Shown: piece by piece, positions 319-35,208 of the stretch
How positions within the stretch are numbered: position 1 is the first letter of the stretch
Layout: the number at the start of each line of letters is the position of its first letter
Source of the DNA: a virus
Taxonomy: Duplodnaviria; Heunggongvirae; Uroviricota; Caudoviricetes
Direction: 5' to 3' (one strand)
Virus record (IMG/VR): IMGVR_UViG_2737471844_000001
Length of the DNA: 36,714 nucleotides
The notes under the pieces: model-generated
What the model saw: only the letters and a program-made list of their open reading frames with translations
What the model was told of the DNA's origin: nothing
Database searches by the model: none
Position numbers and translations under genes: made by a program

Positions 319-476
319 GAATATTTTTTGGTAAGCGTCAAACATGCGCGTTCTGGTTGTGCTTAGCCGGAACCTGTGCGAGCACGATGCCGTTACGTGA
401 AAGGCATCGTGCTATGAAGGGAGATTCTATCGATGTGGTCAATGGAAGACGGTGACCAGGGATAGGGCTTATGCAT

Positions 477-503
477 AAAAAATAAGCCCGTGTAAGGGAG
501 ATT
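477..503. repeat. attL core, AAAAAATAAGCCCGTGTAAGGGAGATT
   Basis: Exact 27-bp copy of sequence at 35182..35208; integrase gene begins 80 bp to the right. Confidence 0.85.
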
Positions 504-1596: not shown

Positions 1597-1711
1597 CAGA
1601 AAACCCTCCGAGTGGTGTGTTTTTTTGCGACTACTAATCGTTTTTTTCGTGGTGGCTGAAATTTAGCCACCAATAGTAGGCACTTGTGATGAATATATTC
1701 ACGATAAATTG

Positions 1712-2011
1712 TTAACCAGTCTTTTGACCGGAGTGGGGCGACGTTGTTTCGTTTTGCCCAAAGTGTGCGAGAGCGGGCGCAATTTGCCCGGACTCAGGAG
1801 CGATCTGATTTGTCATGAACCATAAAGTGTATTTGGTGAATTGTGGGGTCTGCAGGATGTTCATCATGACATCTGTTGGAGGTGTTGAACGACCACTTTC
1901 ATAGTAACTCAGCGTGCCATACGGAACCCCTGTTAAATCAGCAAGTTGTTGTCTGCTCAAATACTCTGATTTTCGCATTAAGACTATCTTCTCGCTTATC
2001 GTGTTTGACAT
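1712..2011 (-). CDS. C: Immunity repressor (P2 C-like, 99 aa)
   Basis: 99 aa, N-terminal helix-turn-helix (QQLADLTGVPYGTLSYYE); divergent from cox; P2 synteny. Confidence 0.9.
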   Translation of the reverse strand: MSNTISEKIVLMRKSEYLSRQQLADLTGVPYGTLSYYESGRSTPPTDVMMNILQTPQFTKYTLWFMTNQIAPESGQIAPALAHFGQNETTSPHSGQKTG

Positions 2012-2125
2012 GGTGTTTAGATCTCAATAGTATTTAGTTTAGATGTAGATTGTTTAGTGCTTGGATGTGGGCACTAAAAGGCATTATAAGGCATTAAACG
2101 CAATTCATGAGGGCTGGAGGACGAC
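2012..2125. promoter_or_regulatory. Divergent early/repressor promoter region (Pe/Pc) with candidate C operator direct repeats
   Basis: TTTAGAT at 2016..2022 and 2038..2044, 22 bp apart, between the divergent C and cox starts; additional TTTAG copies at 2033 and 2053. Confidence 0.55.
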
Positions 2126-2401
2126 ATGAGCAAGCAAGTAACACTCATGACTGATGCGATTCCTTATCAGGAGTTCGCAAAACTAATAGGAAAATCGACA
2201 GGAGCGGTTCGTCGGATGATCGATAAAGGAAAGCTGCCTGTAATTGATATGACCGATCCACAATCAGCTTCAGGTCGTGCAGGTGAATATTGGGTATATC
2301 TTCCGGCATGGAATAACGGACTAAAACTGGCTTATGAAAGCCGCCCTAAAGAGATTCGTGACGGCTGGTTGATGTGGTTAGGTCTTGGTGAACCACGTTA
2401 A
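2126..2401 (+). CDS. cox: Cox excisionase / early transcriptional regulator (91 aa)
   Basis: 91 aa as in P2 Cox; first gene of early operon, divergent from C. Confidence 0.9.
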   Translation: MSKQVTLMTDAIPYQEFAKLIGKSTGAVRRMIDKGKLPVIDMTDPQSASGRAGEYWVYLPAWNNGLKLAYESRPKEIRDGWLMWLGLGEPR

Positions 2402-2411
2402 GGAGAACCGT

Positions 2412-2582
2412 ATGAATGAGCCTCGTTGTATTGCTCAGTTATTGCGTAACGAAAGCCCCAGGGCGATTGACTTCACCATCACCCACGGTAAGGGGCGTAA
2501 GGGAATCATTATCCGCACCAAAAAACAGAGTCCGTTAAAAAAGGCTCTGACCTTTCTGAAAATCCGGAGGGTCTGGAAATGA
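2412..2582 (+). CDS. Small early protein at the P2 orf78 position
   Basis: ATG at 2412 preceded by AAGGAG; stop overlaps the B start (ATGA); the ORF-track start at 2385 is inside cox and lacks an RBS. Confidence 0.5.
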   Translation: MNEPRCIAQLLRNESPRAIDFTITHGKGRKGIIIRTKKQSPLKKALTFLKIRRVWK

Positions 2583-3079
2583 CAGTGATGACGCTCAATC
2601 TCGTTGAAAAACAGCCAGCAGCTATGCGCCGGATAATTGGCAAGCATCTTGCCGTCCCTCGCTGGCAGGATACATGTGATTATTATAATCAGATGATGGA
2701 GCGCGAACGGCTAACGGTTTGCTTTCATGCACAGTTAAAACAGCGTCACGCAACGATGCGTTTTGAAGAAATGAACGACGTCGAACGTGAACGACTGGTT
2801 TGTGCAATTGATGAATTGCGCGGGGCATTCTCAAAACGCCGTCAGGTTGGCGCAAGTGAGTATGCATATATTAGTTTTTTAACAGTCAGTCAGCGTCGCA
2901 CTTTATTTATGCACGCACGACTGACAGAAAAAGAATTTAACCAGCCATACTGGCGAATTAATGAAGAGTCATGTTACTGGCGTGATGCTTTATTCCGTGC
3001 ATTACGTGAATTATTCAGCCTGTTTGAGTATGCACCGACAATTCTGACGTCGGTAAAACCAGAGCAATATCTGCATTAA
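2579..3079 (+). CDS. B: Replication protein B (helicase-loader-like, 166 aa)
   Basis: 166 aa as in P2 B; position after cox. Confidence 0.85.
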   Translation: MTVMTLNLVEKQPAAMRRIIGKHLAVPRWQDTCDYYNQMMERERLTVCFHAQLKQRHATMRFEEMNDVERERLVCAIDELRGAFSKRRQVGASEYAYISFLTVSQRRTLFMHARLTEKEFNQPYWRINEESCYWRDALFRALRELFSLFEYAPTILTSVKPEQYLH

Positions 3080-3142
3080 ATAATTAACCAGAGTTTTTAA
3101 CGCACTTAATCGTGCGGGGCTTCTTTTTGCCTGGAGAAAGTC

Positions 3143-3367
3143 ATGCATACAGTTTCTGAAAATCAGTGCGGTAAATACGCATTACTGCTGCAACAGGCCA
3201 GAACCGAAGCACAGGCCGACGCTGCGACGCGCTTTTCTTCTCATCTTGACGCCATGATTCGCCATATCACAAAGGCGGAGTTATCCCGCGTGGAGATAGT
3301 CGAGCTGCTCAGTCAGGAGTCGGAAAAATTTCACAATATCGGATTGTCTCGCGGGGAGGTGCTTTGA
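3143..3367 (+). CDS. Early protein at the P2 orf80 position (74 aa)
   Basis: Position in the B to A early operon; translationally coupled to the next ORF. Confidence 0.65.
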
Positions 3368-3669
3368 TGTCCTGTTCTCATTCAGTTGTATTACTGAATA
3401 ACGCCTTAAAAATCGCCGTTATGGAAAATGGTGATTTATCTCTTATTCAACTTTGTCTTGATAAAGAAAAACGCGACATAACTGAATCTGTTATCGCGAT
3501 TTATCAGAATGAATTAAACCTCCTGTCTGATATGGTCAATTTACTTGTTAAACGCGCTGTGTTCCACAAGCAAATTTCCTCAGTGGATGAACTGACAAAA
3601 TTAACGACAGAACTTGCCAGTTATTGCGCTGATGTATCCAGGAAACTTAACGACAAAAGGAGCTGGTAA
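3364..3669 (+). CDS. Early protein at the P2 orf81 position (101 aa)
   Basis: Overlapping stop/start with both neighbours; early-operon synteny. Confidence 0.65.
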
Positions 3670-3893
3670 TGCCGGACAACGTAGATTTTATTCAGGAACA
3701 ACAGGCTGAATTACTGGAGCGCCAGATTAACGCGGCAAGGATAAAACATTGCGGTGTTTCTGCGCTGGTTTGCGAAGAGTGTGACGCGCCAATACCTGCT
3801 GCCCGTCGTGCAGCTTATCCGTCAGCCACGCGTTGTGTTTCCTGCCAGTCAGTCTTTGAAGCAAAAAACAAGCATTACCGGAGAATGGCATGA
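3669..3893 (+). CDS. TraR/DksA-type C4 zinc-finger protein at the P2 orf82 position (74 aa)
   Basis: CEEC-x17-CVSC four-cysteine motif near the C-terminus; early-operon position. Confidence 0.7.
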   Translation: MPDNVDFIQEQQAELLERQINAARIKHCGVSALVCEECDAPIPAARRAAYPSATRCVSCQSVFEAKNKHYRRMA

Positions 3894-4168
3894 GTATTCG
3901 TATCGAAATTGGCGAACGTTATGTCGTTACCAGTGACAGCTTTCAGTTTATTCTCCACGAGAAAAAGAGAGCGGAAAGCGGTAAAAACGCCGGTCAGGAA
4001 TGGCTGGCGGTGGTTGGTTATTACCCGAAATTAAGCCAGCTCGTTTCCGGCCTGATGCATCACGATATTCTGACCGGAAGCGCAAAGTCTTTTGCTGATT
4101 TAAACGCGCAGGTTGAGCAACTCAGCAAGCGTTGTTCAGAGGCGTTCTCCAGAGGAGCGTCTGAATGA
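3890..4168 (+). CDS. Early protein at the P2 orf83 position (92 aa)
   Basis: Synteny; ATGA overlap with the previous gene. Confidence 0.65.
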   Translation: MSIRIEIGERYVVTSDSFQFILHEKKRAESGKNAGQEWLAVVGYYPKLSQLVSGLMHHDILTGSAKSFADLNAQVEQLSKRCSEAFSRGASE

Positions 4169-5172
4169 TTACTGATGCTCGTTGCCATACTGAAAATACC
4201 ATCAATGTTATTTTTGTTTCAGGTGGAAAGGACAGCCTTGCTCAGTGGCTTGTCGCTATTGAAGAAAATGTACCCATATTGCCGGTTTTTGCTGATACGG
4301 GACATGAACATCCACAGACAATGAAATATCTGGATTATCTGGAAAAACGGCTTGGCCCAATTAAAAGAGTCAGAGCTGATTTTTCCTGCCGGATTGAATC
4401 AAAGCGCAAGTTTATCCAGACCAAATGGCCTGACTTGTTGGTTAACGATTGTGGAATGTCGGAAGAAGAAGCGCACCAGCGCATCAGTTGTGCGCTGGAA
4501 ATTCTCAAACCAACGGGTATCCCGTTTCTTGATTTGTGTCTGTGGAAGGGGCGTTTCCCATCAACCAAAGCCAGATTTTGCACATTTGAACTGAAACATG
4601 AGCCCGTGCGTTCTCAGGTAATATTGCCTTTACTCAATGAATTTGAGGAAGTGATTAGCTGGCAGGGAGTGCGTGCTCAGGAATCGCCATCACGCGCTGC
4701 TTTACCTGTCTGGGAAGAGGATGCAGACAACACCCCCGGATTGCATGTATATCGCCCGATTTTGCACTGGAAGCATGAAGATGTATTTGCAATAGCCAGA
4801 AGACATGACATTAAGCCAAATCCGTTATATCAGCAGGGGTGTGGCCGTGTTGGTTGTATGCCATGTATTCATGTCCGTAAATCTGAACTGGCAGAAATTT
4901 TTCGCCGGTGGCCGGAGGAAATAAAACGGGTTGCTGAATGGGAACGACTGGTTGCGTCGTGCTCCCGTCGGGGAAATTCCACTTTTTTCCCATCCACACA
5001 TGATCCGCTACGCGCAGAACGTCGTATTGAGATTGTAACAGTCGAGGCATACGGAATAGAAACCTACCATGACTGGACAATGACAACGCGTGGGGGTACT
5101 CAGTTTGATTTACTGGCTTCGGCGAATGATAAAGCCGTTTGCAGTAGTGTCTATGCCGGTGTATGTGAATGA
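4165..5172 (+). CDS. PAPS reductase-like (PP-loop ATP pyrophosphatase family) protein, 335 aa
   Basis: N-terminal PP-loop VIFVSGGKDS; C-terminal cysteine cluster GCGRVGCMPC; inserted between orf83 and A, translationally coupled to both. Confidence 0.7.
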   Translation: MITDARCHTENTINVIFVSGGKDSLAQWLVAIEENVPILPVFADTGHEHPQTMKYLDYLEKRLGPIKRVRADFSCRIESKRKFIQTKWPDLLVNDCGMSEEEAHQRISCALEILKPTGIPFLDLCLWKGRFPSTKARFCTFELKHEPVRSQVILPLLNEFEEVISWQGVRAQESPSRAALPVWEEDADNTPGLHVYRPILHWKHEDVFAIARRHDIKPNPLYQQGCGRVGCMPCIHVRKSELAEIFRRWPEEIKRVAEWERLVASCSRRGNSTFFPSTHDPLRAERRIEIVTVEAYGIETYHDWTMTTRGGTQFDLLASANDKAVCSSVYAGVCE

Positions 5173-7439
5173 GTCATTCTTTCCAGGAGCAATACACCTG
5201 CGTAACTACGTCAGCATTTGCTGCAGGCACCGGTAAGACGTTTACCGGTGCTTATGCATGGAACGCGCCACGCGAGGCCGTCGGGCGCGAAAGACCCCTT
5301 ACACGTGACGAGATGCGTCAGGTGCAAGGGGTTTTATCCACGATTAACCGCCTGCCTTACTTTTTGCGCTCGCTGTTTACTTCACGCTATGACTACATCC
5401 GGCGCAATAAAAGCCCGGTACACGGGTTTTATTTCCTCACATCCACTTTTCAGCGTCGTTTATGGCCGCGCATTGAGCGCGTGAATCAGCGCCATGAAAT
5501 GAACACCGACGCGTCGTTGCTGTTTCTGGCTGAGCGTGACCACTATGCGCGTCTGCCGGGGATGAATGACAAGGAGCTGAAAAAGTTTGCCGCCCGTATT
5601 TCATCGCAGCTTTTCATGATGTATGAGGAACTCTGCGATGCCTGGGTGGATGCGCATGGCGAAAAAGAATCACTGTTTACGGATGAGGCGCAGGATCATC
5701 TGTATGGTCATGTTGCTGGCGCTGCACGTGCTTTCAATATTTCCCCGCTCTACTGGAAAAAATACCGTAAAGGACAGATAACCACGAGGCAGGCATATTC
5801 TGCCATTGCCCGCCTGTTTAACGATGAGTGGTGGACTCATCAGCTTAAAGGCCAGCGTATGCGCTGGCATGAAGCGTTACTGATAGCTGTCGGGGAGGTC
5901 AATAAAGACCGTTCTCCTTATGCCAGTAAACATGCCATTCGTGATGTGCGTGCGCGCCGCCAGGCAAATCTGGAATTTCTTAAATCGTGTGACCTTGAAA
6001 ACAGGGAAACCGGCGAGCGCATCGACCTTATCAGTAAGGTGATGGGCAGTATTTCTAATCCTGAAATTCGCCGGATGGAGCTGATGAACACCATTGCCGG
6101 TATTGAGCGTTACGCCGCCGCAGAGGGTGATGTGGGGATGTTTATCACGCTGACCGCGCCGTCAAAGTATCACCCGACACGTCAGGTCGGAAAAGGCGAA
6201 AGTAAAACCGTTCAGCTTAATCACGGCTGGAACGATGAGGCATTTAATCCAAAGGATGCGCAGCGTTATCTCTGCCGTATCTGGAGCCTGATGCGCACGG
6301 CATTCAAGGATAATGATTTACAGGTCTACGGTTTGCGTGTCGTCGAGCCACACCACGACGGAACGCCGCACTGGCATATGATGCTTTTTTGTAATCCATG
6401 CCAGCGTAACCAGATTATCGAAATCATGCGTCGCTATGCGCTCAAAGAGGATAGTGACGAAAGAGGCGCTGCGCGAAACCGTTTTCAGGCAAAGCACCTT
6501 AACCGGGGCGGTGCTGCGGGATATATCGCGAAATACATCTCAAAAAACATCGACGGCTATGCACTGGATGGTCAGCTCGATAACGATACTGGCAGGCCGC
6601 TGAAAGATACTGCTGCGGCTGTTACCGCATGGGCGTCAACGTGGCGCATTCCGCAATTTAAAACGGTTGGCCTGCCGACAATGGGGGCTTACCGTGAACT
6701 ACGCAAATTGCCTCGCGGCGTCAGCATTGCTGATGAGTTTGACGAACGCGTCGAGGCTGCACGCGCCGCCGCAGACAGTGGTGATTTTGCGTTGTATATC
6801 AGCGCGCAGGGTGGGGCAAATGTCCCGCGCGATTGTCAGACTGTCAGGGTCGCCCGTAGCCCGTCGGATGACGTTAACGAGTATGAGGAAGAAGTCGAGA
6901 GAGTGGTCGGCATTTACGCGCCGCATCTCGGCGCGCGTCATATTCATATCACCAGAACGACGGACTGGCGCATTGTGCCGAAAGTTCCGGTCGTTGAGCC
7001 TTTGACTTTAATAAGCGGCATCGCCGCGCCTCGGAGTCCTGTCAATAACTGTGGAAAGCTCACCGGTGGTGATACTTCGTTACCGGCTCCCACACCTTCT
7101 GAGCACGCCGCAGCAGTGCTTAATCTGGTTGATGACGGTGTTATTGAATGGAATGAACCGGAGGTCGTGAGGGCGCTCAGGGGCGCATTAAAATACGACC
7201 TGAGAACGCCAAACCGTCAGCAAAGAAACGGAAGCCCGTTAAAACCGCATGAAATTGCACCATCTGCCAGACTGACCAGGTCTGAACGATTGCAAATCAC
7301 CCGTATCCGCGTTGACCTTGCTCAGAACGGTATCAGGCCGCAGCGATGGGAGCTTGAGGCGCTGGCGCGTGGAGCGACCGTAAATTATGACGGGAAAAAA
7401 TTCACGTATCCGGTCGCTGATGGTTGGGGGGATTCATAG
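5169..7439 (+). CDS. A: Rolling-circle replication initiator endonuclease (P2 A-like, 756 aa)
   Basis: Length close to P2 A; HUH motif EPHHDGTPHWHMM and paired-tyrosine motif GYIAKYISK. Confidence 0.92.
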   Translation: MSHSFQEQYTCVTTSAFAAGTGKTFTGAYAWNAPREAVGRERPLTRDEMRQVQGVLSTINRLPYFLRSLFTSRYDYIRRNKSPVHGFYFLTSTFQRRLWPRIERVNQRHEMNTDASLLFLAERDHYARLPGMNDKELKKFAARISSQLFMMYEELCDAWVDAHGEKESLFTDEAQDHLYGHVAGAARAFNISPLYWKKYRKGQITTRQAYSAIARLFNDEWWTHQLKGQRMRWHEALLIAVGEVNKDRSPYASKHAIRDVRARRQANLEFLKSCDLENRETGERIDLISKVMGSISNPEIRRMELMNTIAGIERYAAAEGDVGMFITLTAPSKYHPTRQVGKGESKTVQLNHGWNDEAFNPKDAQRYLCRIWSLMRTAFKDNDLQVYGLRVVEPHHDGTPHWHMMLFCNPCQRNQIIEIMRRYALKEDSDERGAARNRFQAKHLNRGGAAGYIAKYISKNIDGYALDGQLDNDTGRPLKDTAAAVTAWASTWRIPQFKTVGLPTMGAYRELRKLPRGVSIADEFDERVEAARAAADSGDFALYISAQGGANVPRDCQTVRVARSPSDDVNEYEEEVERVVGIYAPHLGARHIHITRTTDWRIVPKVPVVEPLTLISGIAAPRSPVNNCGKLTGGDTSLPAPTPSEHAAAVLNLVDDGVIEWNEPEVVRALRGALKYDLRTPNRQQRNGSPLKPHEIAPSARLTRSERLQITRIRVDLAQNGIRPQRWELEALARGATVNYDGKKFTYPVADGWGDS

Positions 7440-7640
7440 GGCGCTTTGATTTTTTCTGTGTTTGACATAGAATAGCCCCGTTACCGCTTGGGACATCTAC
7501 TTTGCATTACTCTTGGTATTAGCTTTGTACAAAGGGTATAAAGGCTGCTATTGGCAACAATAGTGCTGGCATGGAGATTGCCTCATGTTAAAGCTAGTGA
7601 ATGTACGCCAGTACAACCGCTACCGCTTTGGGCGTTGGGA

Positions 7641-7660
7641 GACGGTGCGTAAGCACCGTC
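7641..7660. other. Perfect 8-bp stem-loop GACGGTGC-GTAA-GCACCGTC between convergent genes
   Basis: Read directly; no flanking U-tract on either strand, so not a canonical intrinsic terminator. Confidence 0.4.
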
Positions 7661-7688
7661 GTTCTTACCCAAAACGATAATATGCGGC

Positions 7689-9905
7689 CTAAGCGGTAAC
7701 GTTCTCCTCTTCTAGTTCGTCCATCATTTTTAAATAATGCATTTCGTCACCAGTAGCTGAAAATATTGTTCTCAATTGTTTTAGGTATTTATCTGGGTCT
7801 ATGTCGCCCATATCAGTAATATTTACCGCATCAGAGTGAGAACCTCTGTTAATGTATCTGTAGAATGCTTTGAAATCACTGTTGCTATCGTCGCGTGCCA
7901 ACTTTGTTAATTCATCTTGTAGAGCATCTGTTCTATGAACAAATGCAAAATAATATTCTAGTATGTTTCTCATAATATTAGGTATTATGATTTTGTTTGC
8001 TTTGCCATCTTTTGCATCTTTTAATATTTGCCACAAAGATTGATATTCATTCTGTATGCTGTTTTTTTGTATTTCAGTAATTATACTAAAATCATTTTTC
8101 GTTACTCTACCTAGATAATAGTTTTTCTTAAATAGTTTGTCTTCTCTGCTTTTAGGAGATAGCTTAATAAGTTCATGAAAGAAATAAAGATTGTGAGTAA
8201 GGATTAATACCTTCTTTGTTAATTCATTTTTTATAATGTGGTGATGAATAATTGATGCGATGTCGTAGACATAGTTTTGCGATAGACTAGATATTGGATC
8301 GTCAATAACAATAAAAATATCCCTGCTATCGGTATCATTTTTATCGGTTTTACCTTTACAGCACTCTAAAAAATAAAGAAACGTTATTAGTGTTTTTTCA
8401 CCTTCGCTAAGAGATCTATAAACATTTTGGTTTTTTGTATGCCCTGGTCGAGATATAATGTACATATCTTTTCTTTCTGCATGTTTTTCAATACAAAAAC
8501 CAGAGATCCCTAGATTTTTTAAATGGGTGTTTATTGAGTCTATCGTAGAATCAATGTTAGATATTTTATCTCGCAATGCTTTTATTGTGAGATTATTTTC
8601 TTTTCCTTGTTGCTCAATATTATTTAATTCATCATGAACTTTCTTTTTGATATCAAAGAATTTTTCTTTGTGTTTGGATAAATTCTCTAAATCATCGCTG
8701 CAAAAAGCATGGAGAGCCCCCCAAACTTGTTTTCCGATTTTATTCTCATACTCTTTGAGTTTTTTAACCTTATCATTTATGTCTCTTATTTTTTTGTTAA
8801 CAGCGTCTATGCTTTCCTGAACATGATTTTCTAGTTCTTTATCAATTTCTAATGTAACGCATGTTGATGGATTGTTGATCTTATCAATAATGTTTATTAA
8901 ATTTTTTTCTGCAATGTTTTGCAATATTTTAATATTGGAAATAATGATCTCTTTATCTTTCTCATTGATTAGTGCACATGATGATATATTGTTTTGTATT
9001 TCGTTAAAATGATATATGGTATTTTTCTCATAAACTGACTTTATATCTGAGAGCTGTTTTACTTTCTTTGAATAACTTTCGTCAAATATTGATTTAAGGG
9101 CATTTAAAAATTCGCGACTAATAGTTTTTTCCTGACAAAACGGGCATGTAGAACCGTCTAAATAATGTTCTTTACCTTTTTTTACCCAGTCAAGATTATG
9201 AAGTTTATTAATGGTTTCTGATAAATAGCTATTGCTTGTATCTATTATAGGTGTTGCTAATGTATTTACATCATCAATTGATGGGGTATATGGGTGTAAA
9301 GGAGTTATTAATGCGGTTTCATTGTTTCTATTTTCTAATAGTATAGAGTATTCTTTTGCTATATCATTTAAATTAATAAAGGTGATTGGTGAGGATGATT
9401 TTATCATCTCAAAAAAAGGTCTTTTATAGCCAACTTTACCTTTCATTAAGGTTTTTAGTACAGAGTTTCTGATTGGTTCTGTTTTTTTCCAGATCGATTC
9501 GATGTATTCATTTTCTTTTTTTTCCATTTCTGCTTCTAATTTCAATAACACTCCTTTTTTTTGTCTATATTGCTCTGTAAGTTGCTGTTTAATTGCTTCT
9601 TTTTTAATTAATTGTTTTTCAATATCTGCATTTTCTTTACTTAATGTAAAAACACCTTTTTGTTCCTGTGCATTGTAGAAATTATCTTCAATAAATTTAG
9701 TGTTGTAAACAAGAGGTTTGTAATTGTCAAGAAGGGTACATTCACACTCGTTATAATCTGTGTGTGTAGAGTCGTAGAAATAATTTGAAATGGTAGATTT
9801 GCCACAACCATTTTGGCCGTATAGTATGTTTACTCTTTTTTCAAGATTCAGTATTGTGAAGGCGTCTTTCTTATAACTGGTAACATTTTTTAATCTAAGT
9901 TCCAT
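7689..9905 (-). CDS. Cargo ABC-type ATPase (738 aa) with CxxC insertion and possible RloC/PrrC-like anticodon-nuclease C-terminal region; candidate anti-phage defence protein
   Basis: Walker A GQNGCGKST (res 30-38), ABC signature LSEGEK, Walker B IFIVIDDP, H-loop LTHN; CPFC at res 254-257 plus ECEC at 54-56; C-terminal R-x3-E then H at +40; AT-rich island at the P2 tin/old position; GAGG RBS before the ATG. Confidence 0.6.
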   Translation of the reverse strand: MELRLKNVTSYKKDAFTILNLEKRVNILYGQNGCGKSTISNYFYDSTHTDYNECECTLLDNYKPLVYNTKFIEDNFYNAQEQKGVFTLSKENADIEKQLIKKEAIKQQLTEQYRQKKGVLLKLEAEMEKKENEYIESIWKKTEPIRNSVLKTLMKGKVGYKRPFFEMIKSSSPITFINLNDIAKEYSILLENRNNETALITPLHPYTPSIDDVNTLATPIIDTSNSYLSETINKLHNLDWVKKGKEHYLDGSTCPFCQEKTISREFLNALKSIFDESYSKKVKQLSDIKSVYEKNTIYHFNEIQNNISSCALINEKDKEIIISNIKILQNIAEKNLINIIDKINNPSTCVTLEIDKELENHVQESIDAVNKKIRDINDKVKKLKEYENKIGKQVWGALHAFCSDDLENLSKHKEKFFDIKKKVHDELNNIEQQGKENNLTIKALRDKISNIDSTIDSINTHLKNLGISGFCIEKHAERKDMYIISRPGHTKNQNVYRSLSEGEKTLITFLYFLECCKGKTDKNDTDSRDIFIVIDDPISSLSQNYVYDIASIIHHHIIKNELTKKVLILTHNLYFFHELIKLSPKSREDKLFKKNYYLGRVTKNDFSIITEIQKNSIQNEYQSLWQILKDAKDGKANKIIIPNIMRNILEYYFAFVHRTDALQDELTKLARDDSNSDFKAFYRYINRGSHSDAVNITDMGDIDPDKYLKQLRTIFSATGDEMHYLKMMDELEEENVTA

Positions 9906-24930: not shown

Positions 24931-25405
24931 GTTGTATAAGCTCTGGTGTGAGATTACATATCTATGGCACAGAGTAAAGCCTAATCTGACAGTCCGCTCT
25001 GTGCCAAGAGCGGACGTTACTACTACTCGACCTAAAGTAAAGCAATTGTACTCATTAAATAGTGGTAATTGGGTCTGGTGCTTAATCGAACGAAATCTCA
25101 TGTTAGGCGAAAAAAACGTCTGAAAAATCGATTAACACATACACCTGTGTACTATGGCCGTTATTCAATTTAAAAGGAACCATTTCCGATATGATTCACT
25201 GTCCATAATGTTTTGATTTATTAAAAAAGAGCCTTAGAGTGTGAAACCATTACGTTGAGTGGCGAACACCATTAATAAATTCTGCTTATACTTACAGCAT
25301 ATATTATGTTCACGTCATATAACCATGGCAAATAAGATATTGCACATCAAGCATGATTATGATAGTGATTACAAAAATGAAGAATCTTAGATAAAGGATT
25401 AGTAA

Positions 25406-26341
25406 GTGGTTACATATAATTCAATGTTGTTACCCCCCCCTAAATCTTGGGACGAATTTGAGGATATGTGCAAAAGTTCATTCCAACTGCGATGGTCCAA
25501 TCCTAATCTGAACAGACATGGACGGTCAGGGCAGCGGCAGGATGGAGTTGATGTATATGGTGATGACTCTCTTGGGCGTTTCGTTGGAATTCAGTGTAAA
25601 AATACAGTATCAGGAATCAGTACGGCGACAATCGATGATGAATTACTCAAGGCTGAAAAATTTCGCCCAAAAATTACGGTTCTTTACATCGCTACGACAG
25701 CGCCCAGGGATGTTAGCATTCAGCGCTATGTAAGAACACTCAATGATGCCAGACAATTAAAAGGCCTGTTTCCTGTCGATGTGGTTTTCTGGGAGGATAT
25801 TAGCTTTGATTTAAGCAAAGACCCAGCTGTACTCAAAATGTACTACCCGCAAATGTTCGAACGACACCAACCGACGAGGGAAGAATTTTTGCGCAAGAGA
25901 GATATCTCAAATTTGTCGACATTGTTGAATGTTATTGATTTTCATTCAACAATAGAACATTTGCAGTGGGGCGCAAAATACATTCATTCATTAATTATTG
26001 AAGAATACGATAATATTTTGAACATTTTAAACTCACCTGTTTTTCAACTGAATGATACAGCTTTAAAGAATGTTACAATTGATTTTGCAACGGCCTGGCG
26101 TGATCTAATTATCTTGTTTAGAAAAGCTCCATATAATTATTCAGCACCAAATGATACTTTTAGTTTTATAAATCCCGGTGACCACTGTCGAAATCAGGAG
26201 GAAAGCGATTTATACGACGAAATCACGCATAGCATGAGTAATCTCAAAGATAAAATTAGTACTTTTTGTGACTTTATAAATAATCACTACCATGAAATAA
26301 ACTTAACCGAAACGAGCGCGCAAGCCAGGAAATATTATTAA
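25406..26341 (+). CDS. Cargo protein with Mrr-like PD-(D/E)xK restriction-endonuclease-fold N-domain and uncharacterised C-domain (311 aa); candidate defence nuclease
   Basis: EFE...GRSGQRQDGVDVYGDD...RFVGIQCK...ITVLYIATT resembles the Mrr catalytic-domain pattern (D, D, QxK); GTG start with AAGGA RBS; AT-rich island at the P2 Z/fun position. Confidence 0.6.
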   Translation: MVTYNSMLLPPPKSWDEFEDMCKSSFQLRWSNPNLNRHGRSGQRQDGVDVYGDDSLGRFVGIQCKNTVSGISTATIDDELLKAEKFRPKITVLYIATTAPRDVSIQRYVRTLNDARQLKGLFPVDVVFWEDISFDLSKDPAVLKMYYPQMFERHQPTREEFLRKRDISNLSTLLNVIDFHSTIEHLQWGAKYIHSLIIEEYDNILNILNSPVFQLNDTALKNVTIDFATAWRDLIILFRKAPYNYSAPNDTFSFINPGDHCRNQEESDLYDEITHSMSNLKDKISTFCDFINNHYHEINLTETSAQARKYY

Positions 26342-26618
26342 TACTTTTTTCTTAAGGGCTGCACTCATGGCCCTTAACACCGTTAGACTGTCATATTTTG
26401 CAATCGATACGCAGTTAGGTACTTTCTTGAAGTCCGTTCCTCGCTCATAGCTGACATTCAGCTCAATTAACTCGTCCACTTCGCTCCAACAGAAGGCGTA
26501 GCTAATCATACTGTGTATTAAAGAAAGGAGAAACGATCATGTTGAGTACAAAAAACACGAAAGACCATGATAAGGAAAATATGCGTAGAGTGACTTAGTT
26601 TATTGATTTAAATAATAT

Positions 26619-26924
26619 TTATGGGGGTAAGTGCTTTGAATAAAAAAACAAAAATTGAGAAGATTTAGCTAGTGCCAAAATAATTTGGACACCGCCCGTC
26701 ATCAGACCCGCTACTACACTTATCACCCCAGCCCAAAAAGTTTCAATGAAACAAGATACATATAGTAGTACTACATGGCGGAATAATTTACTCATAGGCT
26801 TCTCCTTACTGACGTAATCGTTAAGTAACACGTTGAGGTAACGGATAAATGCGACTATTGGGAGAGCTGTGATGAGAATTGTAGGCATAGGAATCGAACC
26901 TATGGATGCACTAGCTAAATTCAC
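26619..26924 (-). CDS. Possible small membrane protein (101 aa, GTG start), antisense between the two cargo genes; may be spurious
   Basis: Two or three hydrophobic segments; no clear RBS; reads through a tRNA T-arm-like motif on the same strand. Confidence 0.25.
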   Translation of the reverse strand: MNLASASIGSIPMPTILITALPIVAFIRYLNVLLNDYVSKEKPMSKLFRHVVLLYVSCFIETFWAGVISVVAGLMTGGVQIILALAKSSQFLFFYSKHLPP

Positions 26925-27125
26925 TCTTCACGAATTATACAGCATTGTAGTGAGTTTGTAAATACACGCCCCAAAAGTCAATCAGTCCGCTCCATGAATG
27001 TTGTGTCAGTACTACTAAAGTTAAACATGCTAAAATAGGTTCCCAATATTCGTGGGTACAATCACTATCTGTGTAACTGGCGGAAGCGCTGGCATAACGA
27101 CGATGCCTATTCGGGGGGCTTTAAT

Positions 27126-27992
27126 ATGGTCCGTTTTAACTTACTAGAAAATGCGTTGGATTCAGTGGAAACCGGGCTGGACTACTTTAACAAAGCGCTA
27201 GAAGGGCATGATCGACGTGACTACAAACAGTGCCTGCTTAACCTCTTTCAGGCCGCTGAGCTATTGTTGAAGGCCGTAGTTTCGCGCAATGGGTCTGGAG
27301 CGATTTTTAATCCAGCATCGCTTCAAGAAAAATGTGTGGATCCGGCGCATCCAACCGAGTCAGAATTACACCAGTGTAAATCTGTCAACGTCAACCAGCT
27401 TTGTAAGCTGTTAAAGACATATTACCCAGCCGAATTTTCTGAATCTGCATTACAAATGATGAAAACGGTGGGTCAGTTGCGTAATAACCTTCAGCATTTT
27501 GCCCTTGAGGTTCGTCCGCAAGAACTGGCAATGCAACTGAGTGAACTGTACCAACAAATTTTTCGTCCCGCATTCGTCATAATTCAGTCAGATGAGACCG
27601 AAAATTCATGGAACTCTGATTTACGTCAAGACATCATCGCTCTTGAGCAACAATTCCTTGATATAACTGTTAACCAGGAATACACCCTTGCACTTTGTCC
27701 CGTTTGTGAGAGTTTTTCACATTTTATCCTTTACCAAAGTGAAAGCTTTCCGGCACGGACTCACTGTATCTGTTGTGGTTTCAGCCTGAATAATCTGCAA
27801 ACTTGGGATTTTCAGGAATGTCCTGAATGTAGTGTCCCATCCGTAATTTATTTACCGGAACAAAGGGTCGGTGTCTGTCTCTGGTATAAATGTGAATACA
27901 GCAAGATGGATGGTTTTGTTCCTATGGAGCCTTGTGAATGTGGTGCATTCCGGATGGAAGGTCATTGCAGTAACTGCGATCTTGAGGAATAG
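27126..27992 (+). CDS. Cargo HEPN-domain protein with Cys-rich putative zinc-ribbon C-terminus (288 aa); candidate RNase-type defence effector
   Basis: Rx4H motif in TVGQLRNNLQHF after an alpha-helical N-region; C-terminal 90 aa with repeated CxxC/CxC pairs (CPVC, CICC, CPEC, CEC, CSNC). Confidence 0.6.
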   Translation: MVRFNLLENALDSVETGLDYFNKALEGHDRRDYKQCLLNLFQAAELLLKAVVSRNGSGAIFNPASLQEKCVDPAHPTESELHQCKSVNVNQLCKLLKTYYPAEFSESALQMMKTVGQLRNNLQHFALEVRPQELAMQLSELYQQIFRPAFVIIQSDETENSWNSDLRQDIIALEQQFLDITVNQEYTLALCPVCESFSHFILYQSESFPARTHCICCGFSLNNLQTWDFQECPECSVPSVIYLPEQRVGVCLWYKCEYSKMDGFVPMEPCECGAFRMEGHCSNCDLEE

Positions 27993-28355
27993 TAAAATCG
28001 TCCGATGAGAATGTACAGCAGCCTGGTCGATGATTTCTTGATGAATCGCTGAATTATCCGGTATTACTTGACAACTAAATCGCACATTTCTGTTTCTGGC
28101 AATTTGAAAGGTTTACTCTATGCCCCAGAATTCAGCACATACATAAAAACACCATTTCAGAACGCGTCTTGATCCAAAGAACGACTGTATGATAGATAGG
28201 CGTCGTCGTGAGGACAGGAATGATCTACCCCCCGTTATTCATACAGAATGCTGTTAGTAATGTCCGCAGATCGCTCAAAGCAGACTGTCAGATTTGATAG
28301 CGTTTGGGCTATGTAAGTAGCCAGTTGGAGAATGAGTGAGTGCAAATCAGGACTG

Positions 28356-28381
28356 GCGGGCGAATTGCCCGCATTTTCTTT
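28356..28381 (+). terminator. Candidate rho-independent terminator separating the cargo island from the late tail operon
   Basis: GCGGGC-GAATT-GCCCGC hairpin followed by ATTTTCTTTAT. Confidence 0.6.
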
Positions 28382-28477
28382 ATCTGTTGTTTCATCCACT
28401 GACCAGCCAGGTCAAATAGCGTCTCATGCACTGCCCAACAGAAAATAGTTGCACCCATTAACCACGGAGTTAAACGG

Positions 28478-35118: not shown

Positions 35119-35181
35119 TCGATGTGGTCAATATATGGACGTGACCAGAAATAAATCCTTTTATTTCAATTTGTTGTACGT

Positions 35182-35208
35182 AAAAAATAAGCCCGTGTAA
35201 GGGAGATT
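35182..35208. repeat. attR core, AAAAAATAAGCCCGTGTAAGGGAGATT
   Basis: Exact copy of 477..503. Confidence 0.85.

Follow-up and report, generated by a model that had tools for sequence, protein, structure and literature searches.

The gene between the orf83-like gene and replication gene A in the prophage analyzed here is the orthologue of orf84 of coliphage 186. Our best explanation, to which we give about an even chance, is that it encodes a PP-loop/Fe-S enzyme, made early and dispensable, whose role is in DNA modification or counter-defence rather than in sulfate assimilation. The gene is already known and annotated, and the window gene in itself holds nothing new.

The window, by which we mean the whole stretch of 36,714 nucleotides that was analyzed, contains a P2-like prophage that is flanked by the two copies of a direct repeat of 28 bp (476-503 and 35181-35208). 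The early operon of this prophage runs rightward from cox, and the 335-aa gene, being a member of that operon, should be expressed only during lytic growth. A scan of positions 1600-7700 for promoters and terminators gave no convincing internal signal, with promoter matches no more frequent than expected from shuffled sequence. The prophage also bears candidate defence cargo elsewhere, and those cargo genes are low in GC.

An earlier note on this DNA, made from the sequence alone, had described a 335-aa reading frame with an SGGKDS PP-loop, a C-terminal cysteine cluster and overlapping stop and start codons on both sides. The ORF list and the sequence confirm the reading frame and its PP-loop, and five cysteines (C139, C231, C234, C326 and C334) are conserved in an alignment of 55 homologues. 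Both junctions have the form ATGA (4165-4168 and 5169-5172): upstream, the ATG of the PAPS-like gene (4165-4167) overlaps the TGA of the orf83-like gene (4166-4168), and downstream its own TGA (5170-5172) overlaps the ATG of gene A (5169-5171). The placement of this PAPS-superfamily gene between the orf83-like gene and A supports the further proposal that it is coupled into the early replication operon. What the note missed is the orthology to 186 orf84, which the curated 186 record describes as non-essential, with translation to the end of orf84 apparently needed for translation of the A protein. The 186 product (CP84, NP_052288.1) is 76% identical in amino acid sequence to the window protein (tblastn against annotated phages) and is 334 aa long instead of 335. 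It is encoded, as here, between a DUF5405 gene and A, shares the stop/start overlap with A, and has an identical C-terminal sequence, ...CSSVYAGVCE. The features of the locus are collected in Table 1.

Table 1. Coordinates in the window of the PAPS-like gene, its junctions and its motifs
Feature	Position	Strand	Basis
PAPS-reductase-superfamily gene, 335 aa, 186 orf84 orthologue	4165..5172	+	ORF list, PF01507, phrog_424, synteny, dN/dS
Upstream orf83-like gene, DUF5405, 92 aa	3890..4168	+	PF17399, E=5e-14
Downstream replication gene A, Phage_GPA, rolling-circle initiator, 756 aa	5169..7439	+	PF05840, E=2.5e-122
ATGA overlap, orf83-like stop/PAPS-like start	4165..4168	+	Sequence
ATGA overlap, PAPS-like stop/gene A start, translational coupling	5169..5172	+	Sequence; 186 record
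Putative Shine-Dalgarno GAGGAG, 7 nt before the PAPS-like ATG, in the swapped orf83 3' end	4152..4157	+	Sequence; function inferred
Cassette relative to the empty P2-type orf83/A junction, 1,059 bp replacing 39 bp	4147..5205	+	blastn and alignment
PP-loop S19-G-G-K-D-S24, ATP pyrophosphatase signature	4219..4236	+	Sequence, 55-homologue alignment
D44-T-G-H-E48 nucleotide-binding motif, common to CysH (TDTGYLFPET)	4294..4308	+	Alignments
C139...K144-H-E-P147, Cys at K-5 and KxEP	4579..4605	+	Alignments
C231-M-P-C234, aligns with APS-reductase [4Fe-4S] CxxC	4855..4866	+	Alignments
C-terminal tail C326-x7-C334-E335-COOH	5140..5169	+	55-homologue alignment; tail low-confidence in model

The gene is a presence/absence character among closely related prophages. 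A 2-kb query across the orf83/A junction found matches in 1,615 of 5,426 complete E. coli genomes, and the whole cassette, including the PAPS-like gene, was present in 44 of those 1,615. In the listed records the gene is flanked by a "DUF5405 family protein" and a "replication endonuclease", and RefSeq copies at 99.9% identity carry the label "phosphoadenosine phosphosulfate reductase family protein". The sampled rows among the remaining matches almost all had the empty orf83/A junction of P2, so that the premise of the earlier note, that in canonical P2 gene A comes straight after orf83, holds. When one E. coli locus with an empty junction (L002) was compared with the window by blastn, homology stopped at 4146 and returned at 5206. 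The block that takes the place of the 39 bp thus brings with it the last 22 nt of orf83, in which the GAGGAG element lies, as well as 37 nt from the start of A. With a GC content of 46.5%, against 44-48% across the early region, the cassette matches its surroundings, and the idea that it is compositionally foreign was rejected.

The backbone around the cassette appears to be of a different derivation. Gene A of the window is 96-97% identical to P2-type A and only 36% identical to 186 A, the flanks are P2-type, and 186 differs further in having an extra RNase_T exonuclease gene upstream. The locus therefore looks like a 186-type cassette within a P2-type backbone. Yersinia phage P37 and a record under the name Peduovirus P2 have a copy that is 82% identical. 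The orf83/A slot of another E. coli prophage is filled by a protein of 272 aa with a match to phrog_887, "queuine tRNA-ribosyltransferase" (E=9e-87), and we infer that this TGT-like protein is DpdA-like, that is, of the DNA 7-deazaguanine transglycosylase type.

The suggestion that such an insertion "may not be rare" proved right, since phage 186 itself carries the gene, and so do many P2-like phages and other temperate ones. The window protein belongs with phrog_424 and 186 orf84 by full-length similarity that includes the C-terminal cysteine tail (phrog_424 match, E=7e-86). One database held 5,826 homologues at E<=1e-5, and another yielded 2,445 representatives of 50%-identity clusters, 308 of them at E<=1e-30 and aligned to the last residue. 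Annotated homologues occur in 69 phage records from Burkholderia, Acinetobacter, Bacteroides, Pseudomonas, Vibrio and others. Gene A follows the homologue directly in 16 viral loci and lies within two genes of it in 22, and many phages with a homologue have no gene A.

This distribution bears on one explanation of a non-essential gene whose translation appears to be needed for A to be made, namely that the reading frame is no more than a spacer, translated so as to bring ribosomes to gene A in cis, and that the protein is irrelevant. The 186 record and the ATGA overlaps on both sides fit such a role. Comparison with 186 orf84, however, gave dN=0.165 with synonymous sites saturated and dN/dS of about 0.08, and comparison with a 99%-identical copy gave dN/dS of 0.115. 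Values near 0.1 imply strong purifying selection and maintenance of the protein itself, beyond mere translation. Residues of catalytic type are invariant over hundreds of diverged lineages, the family occurs in many phages that lack gene A, and P2 couples A straight to orf83. A role purely in cis is thus barely credible.

The question is then what the protein does. Its match to the Pfam family PAPS_reduct (PF01507; E=5.4e-35; 121.4 bits against a cutoff of 22.5) covers model positions 3-174 of 175, and longer homologues had PF01507 only, with no fused methyltransferase, ParB or HTH domain. The more specific NCBIfam models, matched mainly over the C-terminal half, all score far below their cutoffs. 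This is true of CysH (PRK02090, 67 versus 154; TIGR00434, 47 versus 165; TIGR02057, 40 versus 254), of APS reductase (TIGR02055, 53 bits versus 235), of DndC (TIGR03183, 21.3 bits versus 290.4) and of the IbrA-like family (NF005316, PRK06850; 25.6 bits versus 536). All four equivalog assignments are excluded on these scores. The "DndC-like" of the earlier note accordingly fails as a statement of family membership (21 bits against 290). The same note had regarded a match to a housekeeping CysH with no phage association as fatal to its proposal; the CysH scores are in fact below cutoff and the family is phage-borne. The best PADLOC match is a partial one to SspD (E=2.7e-21); BrxP and DndC come next. 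An identity as SspD was rejected because coverage is partial and the partners are missing. Overall, the sequence is nearer to SspD, CysH and BrxP than to TtcA or TtuA.

The conserved residues give a more detailed picture. In the alignment of 55 diverse homologues, where we call a residue conserved if it is invariant or present in at least 90%, the invariant positions are G21, S24, D44, C139, K144, C231 and C334, and those at 90% or more include S19, G20, K22, D23, the rest of DTG, C234, C326 and E335. Further conserved positions are E48, R170, E173-S174, N219PLY222, R228-V-G-C231-x-P-C234 and K239, and, toward the C-terminus, W259-E260 and W304/T307/G310-G311. The window protein has 12 cysteines in all. 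Their positions were compared with those of known enzymes by anchoring the alignment on KxEP, which is KVEP in E. coli CysH and KVVP or KIEP in APS reductases. C139, at K-5, occupies the position of the first cysteine in the Cys-Cys pair of APS reductases (CCRLRKVVP in a fragment of the M. tuberculosis enzyme), and the second cysteine is replaced by threonine. Three of the four positions of APS-reductase Fe-S cysteines thus appear to be kept (C139, C231 and C234). E. coli CysH, which binds no cluster and lacks the cysteines corresponding to these three, has SSFGIQA in the place of the PP-loop, VGDTHT in the place of the CxxC, and a RECGLHEG sequence; the window protein ends in ...YAGVCE and lacks the ECGLH motif. 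Judged from these alignments, the phage family would combine an ATP-type PP-loop, a C-terminal cysteine pair and cysteines at three of the four sites that bind the Fe-S cluster in APS reductase. CysH has a mobile, cysteine-bearing tail, of which the conserved C-terminal tail of the phage proteins is reminiscent.

Among the closest known enzymes is the assimilatory APS reductase, the [4Fe-4S] form of CysH found in P. aeruginosa and M. tuberculosis, which shares with the phage protein the fold, KxEP, DTG, a cysteine at K-5, a CxxC in the same place and a cysteine on a C-terminal tail. The phage protein differs in having a true PP-loop, a single cysteine in place of Cys-Cys and no ECGLH, and it adds a helical insert of about 50 aa and a C-terminal extension of about 100 aa. 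A second alternative reads the gene as a CysH-type sulfonucleotide reductase, an auxiliary metabolic gene with which infected cells or lysogens would assimilate more sulfate into cysteine. The PAPS_reduct match, the CysH and APS reductases as best solved structures, and the shared KxEP and DTG motifs all speak for it. So do the PHROG category of phrog_424 ("auxiliary metabolic gene"), the usual annotation, and some papers that read phage PAPS-reductase homologues as sulfur-metabolism genes. Nevertheless we consider this reading very unlikely. The NCBIfam scores are below cutoff, SGGKDS is kept where CysH has SSFGIQA, and ECGLH is absent; moreover, the gene lies in a repressed early lytic operon, with replication and DNA-methylase genes for company, no cysIJ-type gene was found beside homologues among the scanned neighbours, and E. 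coli already has cysH.

The AlphaFold model of the protein (pLDDT 75) has high confidence over residues 1-270, and the last 65 residues are poorly modelled. Foldseek against the PDB placed PAPS/APS reductases first, with nothing nearer, and then the [4Fe-4S] sulfurtransferase TtuA and FAD synthase. Sequence and profile searches of solved structures returned only CysH/APS reductases, QueC, Cap9 and a weak match to PDB 21fy, "PptA". This entry has the CxxC-helix region in common with the phage protein; we found no paper on it, and it gave no functional lead. The appearance of TtuA among the fold matches raises the possibility of a PP-loop/Fe-S thiolase that acts on RNA (a tRNA, in the manner of TtcA or TtuA) or on a small molecule, in a role unrelated to DNA. 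A PP-loop for adenylation combined with a three-cysteine sulfur-handling cluster is indeed the TtuA/TtcA design, and a DNA-binding domain is not recognisable in the phage protein. On the other hand, identity to these enzymes is only 11-16%, the cysteine spacing is different, the TtuA/TtcA substrate is tRNA, and the phage protein has no THUMP, PUA or other RNA-binding module. Its sequence affinities, as noted, lie elsewhere, and the family is found beside genes for DNA methylases, Mom, recombination and replication, not beside genes for tRNA or tRNA repair. We regard this alternative as distinctly improbable.

The evidence from neighbouring genes comes from 80 related viral-contig loci together with annotated phage loci, in which ORFs were called and of which 82 were usable; 181 neighbour ORFs were scanned against Pfam in two batches. 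In both batches the commonest family was the DNA methyltransferases (D12, 13 times; C5, 8; N6_N4, 4; MT-A70, 1), and Mom was found twice. Methyltransferases made up 26 of 204 ORFs at most two genes away and 7 of 317 beyond that (odds ratio 6.5, Fisher P=3e-6), a comparison that is uncorrected for kinship and is to be read against the general richness of temperate-phage early regions in methyltransferases. Among ORFs of at least 100 aa the methyltransferase share falls from 25% at position -1 to 12% at -2, and is 0% from the fifth gene outward. A methyltransferase lies within two genes at 25 of the 82 loci, including 13 of the 24 that contain gene A, and in the latter most are D12 Dam genes immediately upstream, so that the order is Dam-PAPS-A. 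With Dam plus PAPS genes or a TGT-like gene before A, there seems to be a slot for cargo of the DNA-modification type just before A. Individual phages show related arrangements: the order in phiE125 is DNA methyltransferase, PAPS-like gene ("similar to Phage 186 Orf84"), ParB-like gene and replication genes; in Agrobacterium phage Rivra a methyltransferase, the PAPS-like gene and a DNA methyltransferase follow one another; and in Parlo and S1 the PAPS-like gene has a methylase gene at a distance of one or two genes. The window itself has no methyltransferase anywhere, which makes any methyltransferase partnership optional.

The ParB-like neighbours in phiE125 (gp58) and in Riah, with two HTH_ParB neighbours in the Pfam scan and one lambdoid homologue labelled "transcriptional regulator", would be expected if the protein were an IbrA-like co-regulator that switches on prophage genes with a ParB-like partner. 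Such adjacency is rare, being seen at few of the 82 loci, and the ORF list and Pfam show no ParB-like ORF in the early operon of the window. Together with the NF005316 score and the strict conservation of catalytic-type residues, which favours an enzyme, this leaves the co-regulator explanation with a very slight chance of being correct.

The partner genes of known phosphorothioate (PT) systems were also sought. No cysteine desulfurase, DndA, DndD or DndE, SspB or SspC, or other NTPase partner was found by Pfam among the 181 neighbour ORFs of the 82 loci, and neither a P-loop NTPase (DndD/SspC/BrxC) nor a DNA-binding or nicking partner was found in the window (ORF list, Pfam). The partial PADLOC matches to SspD, BrxP and DndC, and the candidate defence cargo elsewhere in the prophage, might suggest that the gene is a defence component that protects the lysogen, like other P2 hotspot cargo. 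This is highly unlikely: the partner genes are absent, the gene lies in an early lytic operon, downstream of cox, that is shut by the C repressor in the lysogen, and its GC content fits the early region, unlike that of the low-GC cargo genes. Each of the five alternatives considered above is less likely than the reading with which we began, an early enzyme for DNA modification or counter-defence.

A model of such an enzyme can be drawn from its relatives. The intact SGGKDS loop is predicted to bind ATP, which would be followed by adenylation of the substrate. C139, C231 and C234 may hold a putative [4Fe-4S] cluster, as in APS reductase and in enzymes of the DndC/TtuA type, and the flexible C-terminal pair C326/C334 could serve as nucleophile or persulfide carrier. 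The enzyme would then work early in the lytic cycle, either on the replicating phage DNA itself or for its benefit, and the most plausible target would be restriction that depends on sulfur (phosphorothioate) marks, of the Dnd, Ssp or BREX-4 type. DndC, SspD and BrxP, PAPS-reductase-domain proteins that insert sulfur in phosphorothioate systems, share with the phage protein a PP-loop ATP pyrophosphatase domain, cysteines suited to an Fe-S cluster and a link to DNA modification, but the phage gene is solitary, with no desulfurase, no NTPase (DndD/SspC/BrxC) and no DndE, SspB or DUF4007 protein nearby.

A precedent for a counter-defence role comes from the work of Piel et al. on Vibrio phages, in which a two-gene block moved into a related phage allowed infection of a Dnd-carrying host, one of the two genes being a fusion of a PAPS domain with Dam (10.1101/2021.05.05.442762). 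The fusion, p0018 of Vibrio podovirus 44E38.1, resembles the Dam-PAPS gene pairs seen in a majority of the P2/186-like loci. It differs in being a fusion with a short PAPS domain of about 170 aa, which was tested along with a second gene, and the window has no Dam. Furthermore, a 2026 NAR paper predicts that Aca-regulated phage PAPS reductases are likely anti-defence genes (PMC13551039), and another paper states that phage PAPS reductases "deserve further investigation" (PMC11437467).

Other observations weigh against a role in DNA modification. Phage 186 is viable when orf84 function is lost, and we know of no report of unusual 186 DNA. All known phosphorothioate writers also need a DNA-recognition or nicking protein, and no such partner stands beside the homologues at the 82 loci. 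Known PT systems require both a PAPS-domain protein and a P-loop NTPase, and no PT was seen in isolates that have a PAPS-reductase gene on its own (PMC12914056). The guess in the earlier note at a DNA-modification or anti-restriction function has thus gained circumstantial support from the methyltransferase enrichment, from the Dam plus PAPS or TGT-like genes before A and from the Vibrio anti-Dnd block, and is weakened by the absence of DndC-type partners.

A more specific proposal, which we offer tentatively and think unlikely as it stands, is that a solitary PP-loop/[4Fe-4S] enzyme, co-expressed with the nicking initiator, could mark phage DNA with sulfur during replication, as a phosphorothioate or a thio-base, and need no partner of the DndD/E or SspB/C type, or could divert the host sulfur relay, so that the phage evades PT-sensing or other restriction. 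The function should be directly testable, since the gene comes as a clean 1-kb presence/absence cassette in near-identical P2-type prophages and phage 186 is tractable.

Phage genomes contain thousands of "PAPS reductase" genes, and these are often tallied in viromes as auxiliary genes of sulfur metabolism. We argue that this label is misleading at least for the 186-orf84 subfamily, because of its ATP-type PP-loop, its Fe-S-type cysteines and the company that it keeps with DNA methylases in early operons. If the proposal of a solitary sulfur-marking or sulfur-diverting enzyme is true, the family would represent a new, minimal form of DNA thiolation or of counter-defence against PT-dependent restriction, widespread in temperate phages and mislabelled as sulfur metabolism.

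In an E. coli SY038 locus (L003), the orf83-A junction carries another cargo gene in place of the PAPS-reductase-like gene (see the table below). The 272-aa product of this gene gave a strong match to phrog_887, annotated as "queuine tRNA-ribosyltransferase" (E=9e-87), and no match in a search against Pfam; it is possibly a DpdA-like DNA transglycosylase. The PAPS-like gene, for its part, is probably present also in phages that are not P2-like. Copies about 77-78% identical to the window protein occur in eight enterobacterial phage contigs (L011, L012, L014, L016, L017 and L019-L021), and the argument for a non-P2-like setting is that gene A was not found near these copies in the stretches examined, some of which end less than 1 kb downstream. 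Among solved structures, residues 168-228 of chain C of PDB 21fy ("PptA") align with the family over its CxxC motif and the helix after it (profile E=9e-5); a literature search yielded no paper on this PDB entry.

Features located in the window and in L003
Feature	Position	Strand	Match or context
Exact 28-bp direct repeat, TAAAAAATAAGCCCGTGTAAGGGAGATT	window 476-503 and 35181-35208		next to integrase gene and at far end of phage genes
AAA_13 ATPase gene, 738 aa	window 7689-9905	-	Pfam, E=2e-111
Low-GC cargo block, 35-44% GC	window 24931-28477		between tail-fibre genes and tail sheath gene
Cargo-block ORF1	window 25406-26341	+	phrog_8991
Cargo-block ORF2	window 27126-27992	+	phrog_20819
Other cargo gene in orf83-A junction, 272 aa	L003 2015-2833		E. 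coli SY038, NZ_CM185151.1

Two further regions of the window carry cargo. The AAA_13 gene is situated between gene A and the genes for portal and terminase, a position that in P2 is the old/tin cargo hotspot, and has a GC content of 29.6%, compared to about 52% in the adjoining phage genes. For its product, PADLOC gives a match to the candidate defence family PDC-S06 (E=2e-254), and the C-terminal part gives a PrrC-like match. The low-GC block near the tail genes is probably a second hotspot for defence cargo; the N-terminal part of the ORF2 product matches PADLOC PDC-S64 (E=4e-21), and weak HEC-08/HEPN-type matches of ORF2 are seen as well. The two copies of the 28-bp repeat are most likely the attL/attR core, which would give a prophage of about 34.7 kb.

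Many complete E. coli RefSeq records (H67-H78) start about 30 nt 5' of that portion of P2 gene A which lies beyond the cassette boundary, with all of the gene A matches on the + strand (e.g. positions 32-524 of NZ_CP123325.1), and this suggests that assembly start-fixing software takes P2 gene A as the record origin. Upstream of that boundary, codons 1 to about 13 of gene A are wholly unlike in the cassette-bearing window (5169-5213) and in L002, an E. coli locus with an empty junction (1987-2025); the gene begins MSHSFQEQYTCVTT... in the former and MAVKASGRFVPP... in the latter. Judging from this comparison, the cargo brings with it a different N-terminus for the replication initiator, and the initiator seems to tolerate this exchange.
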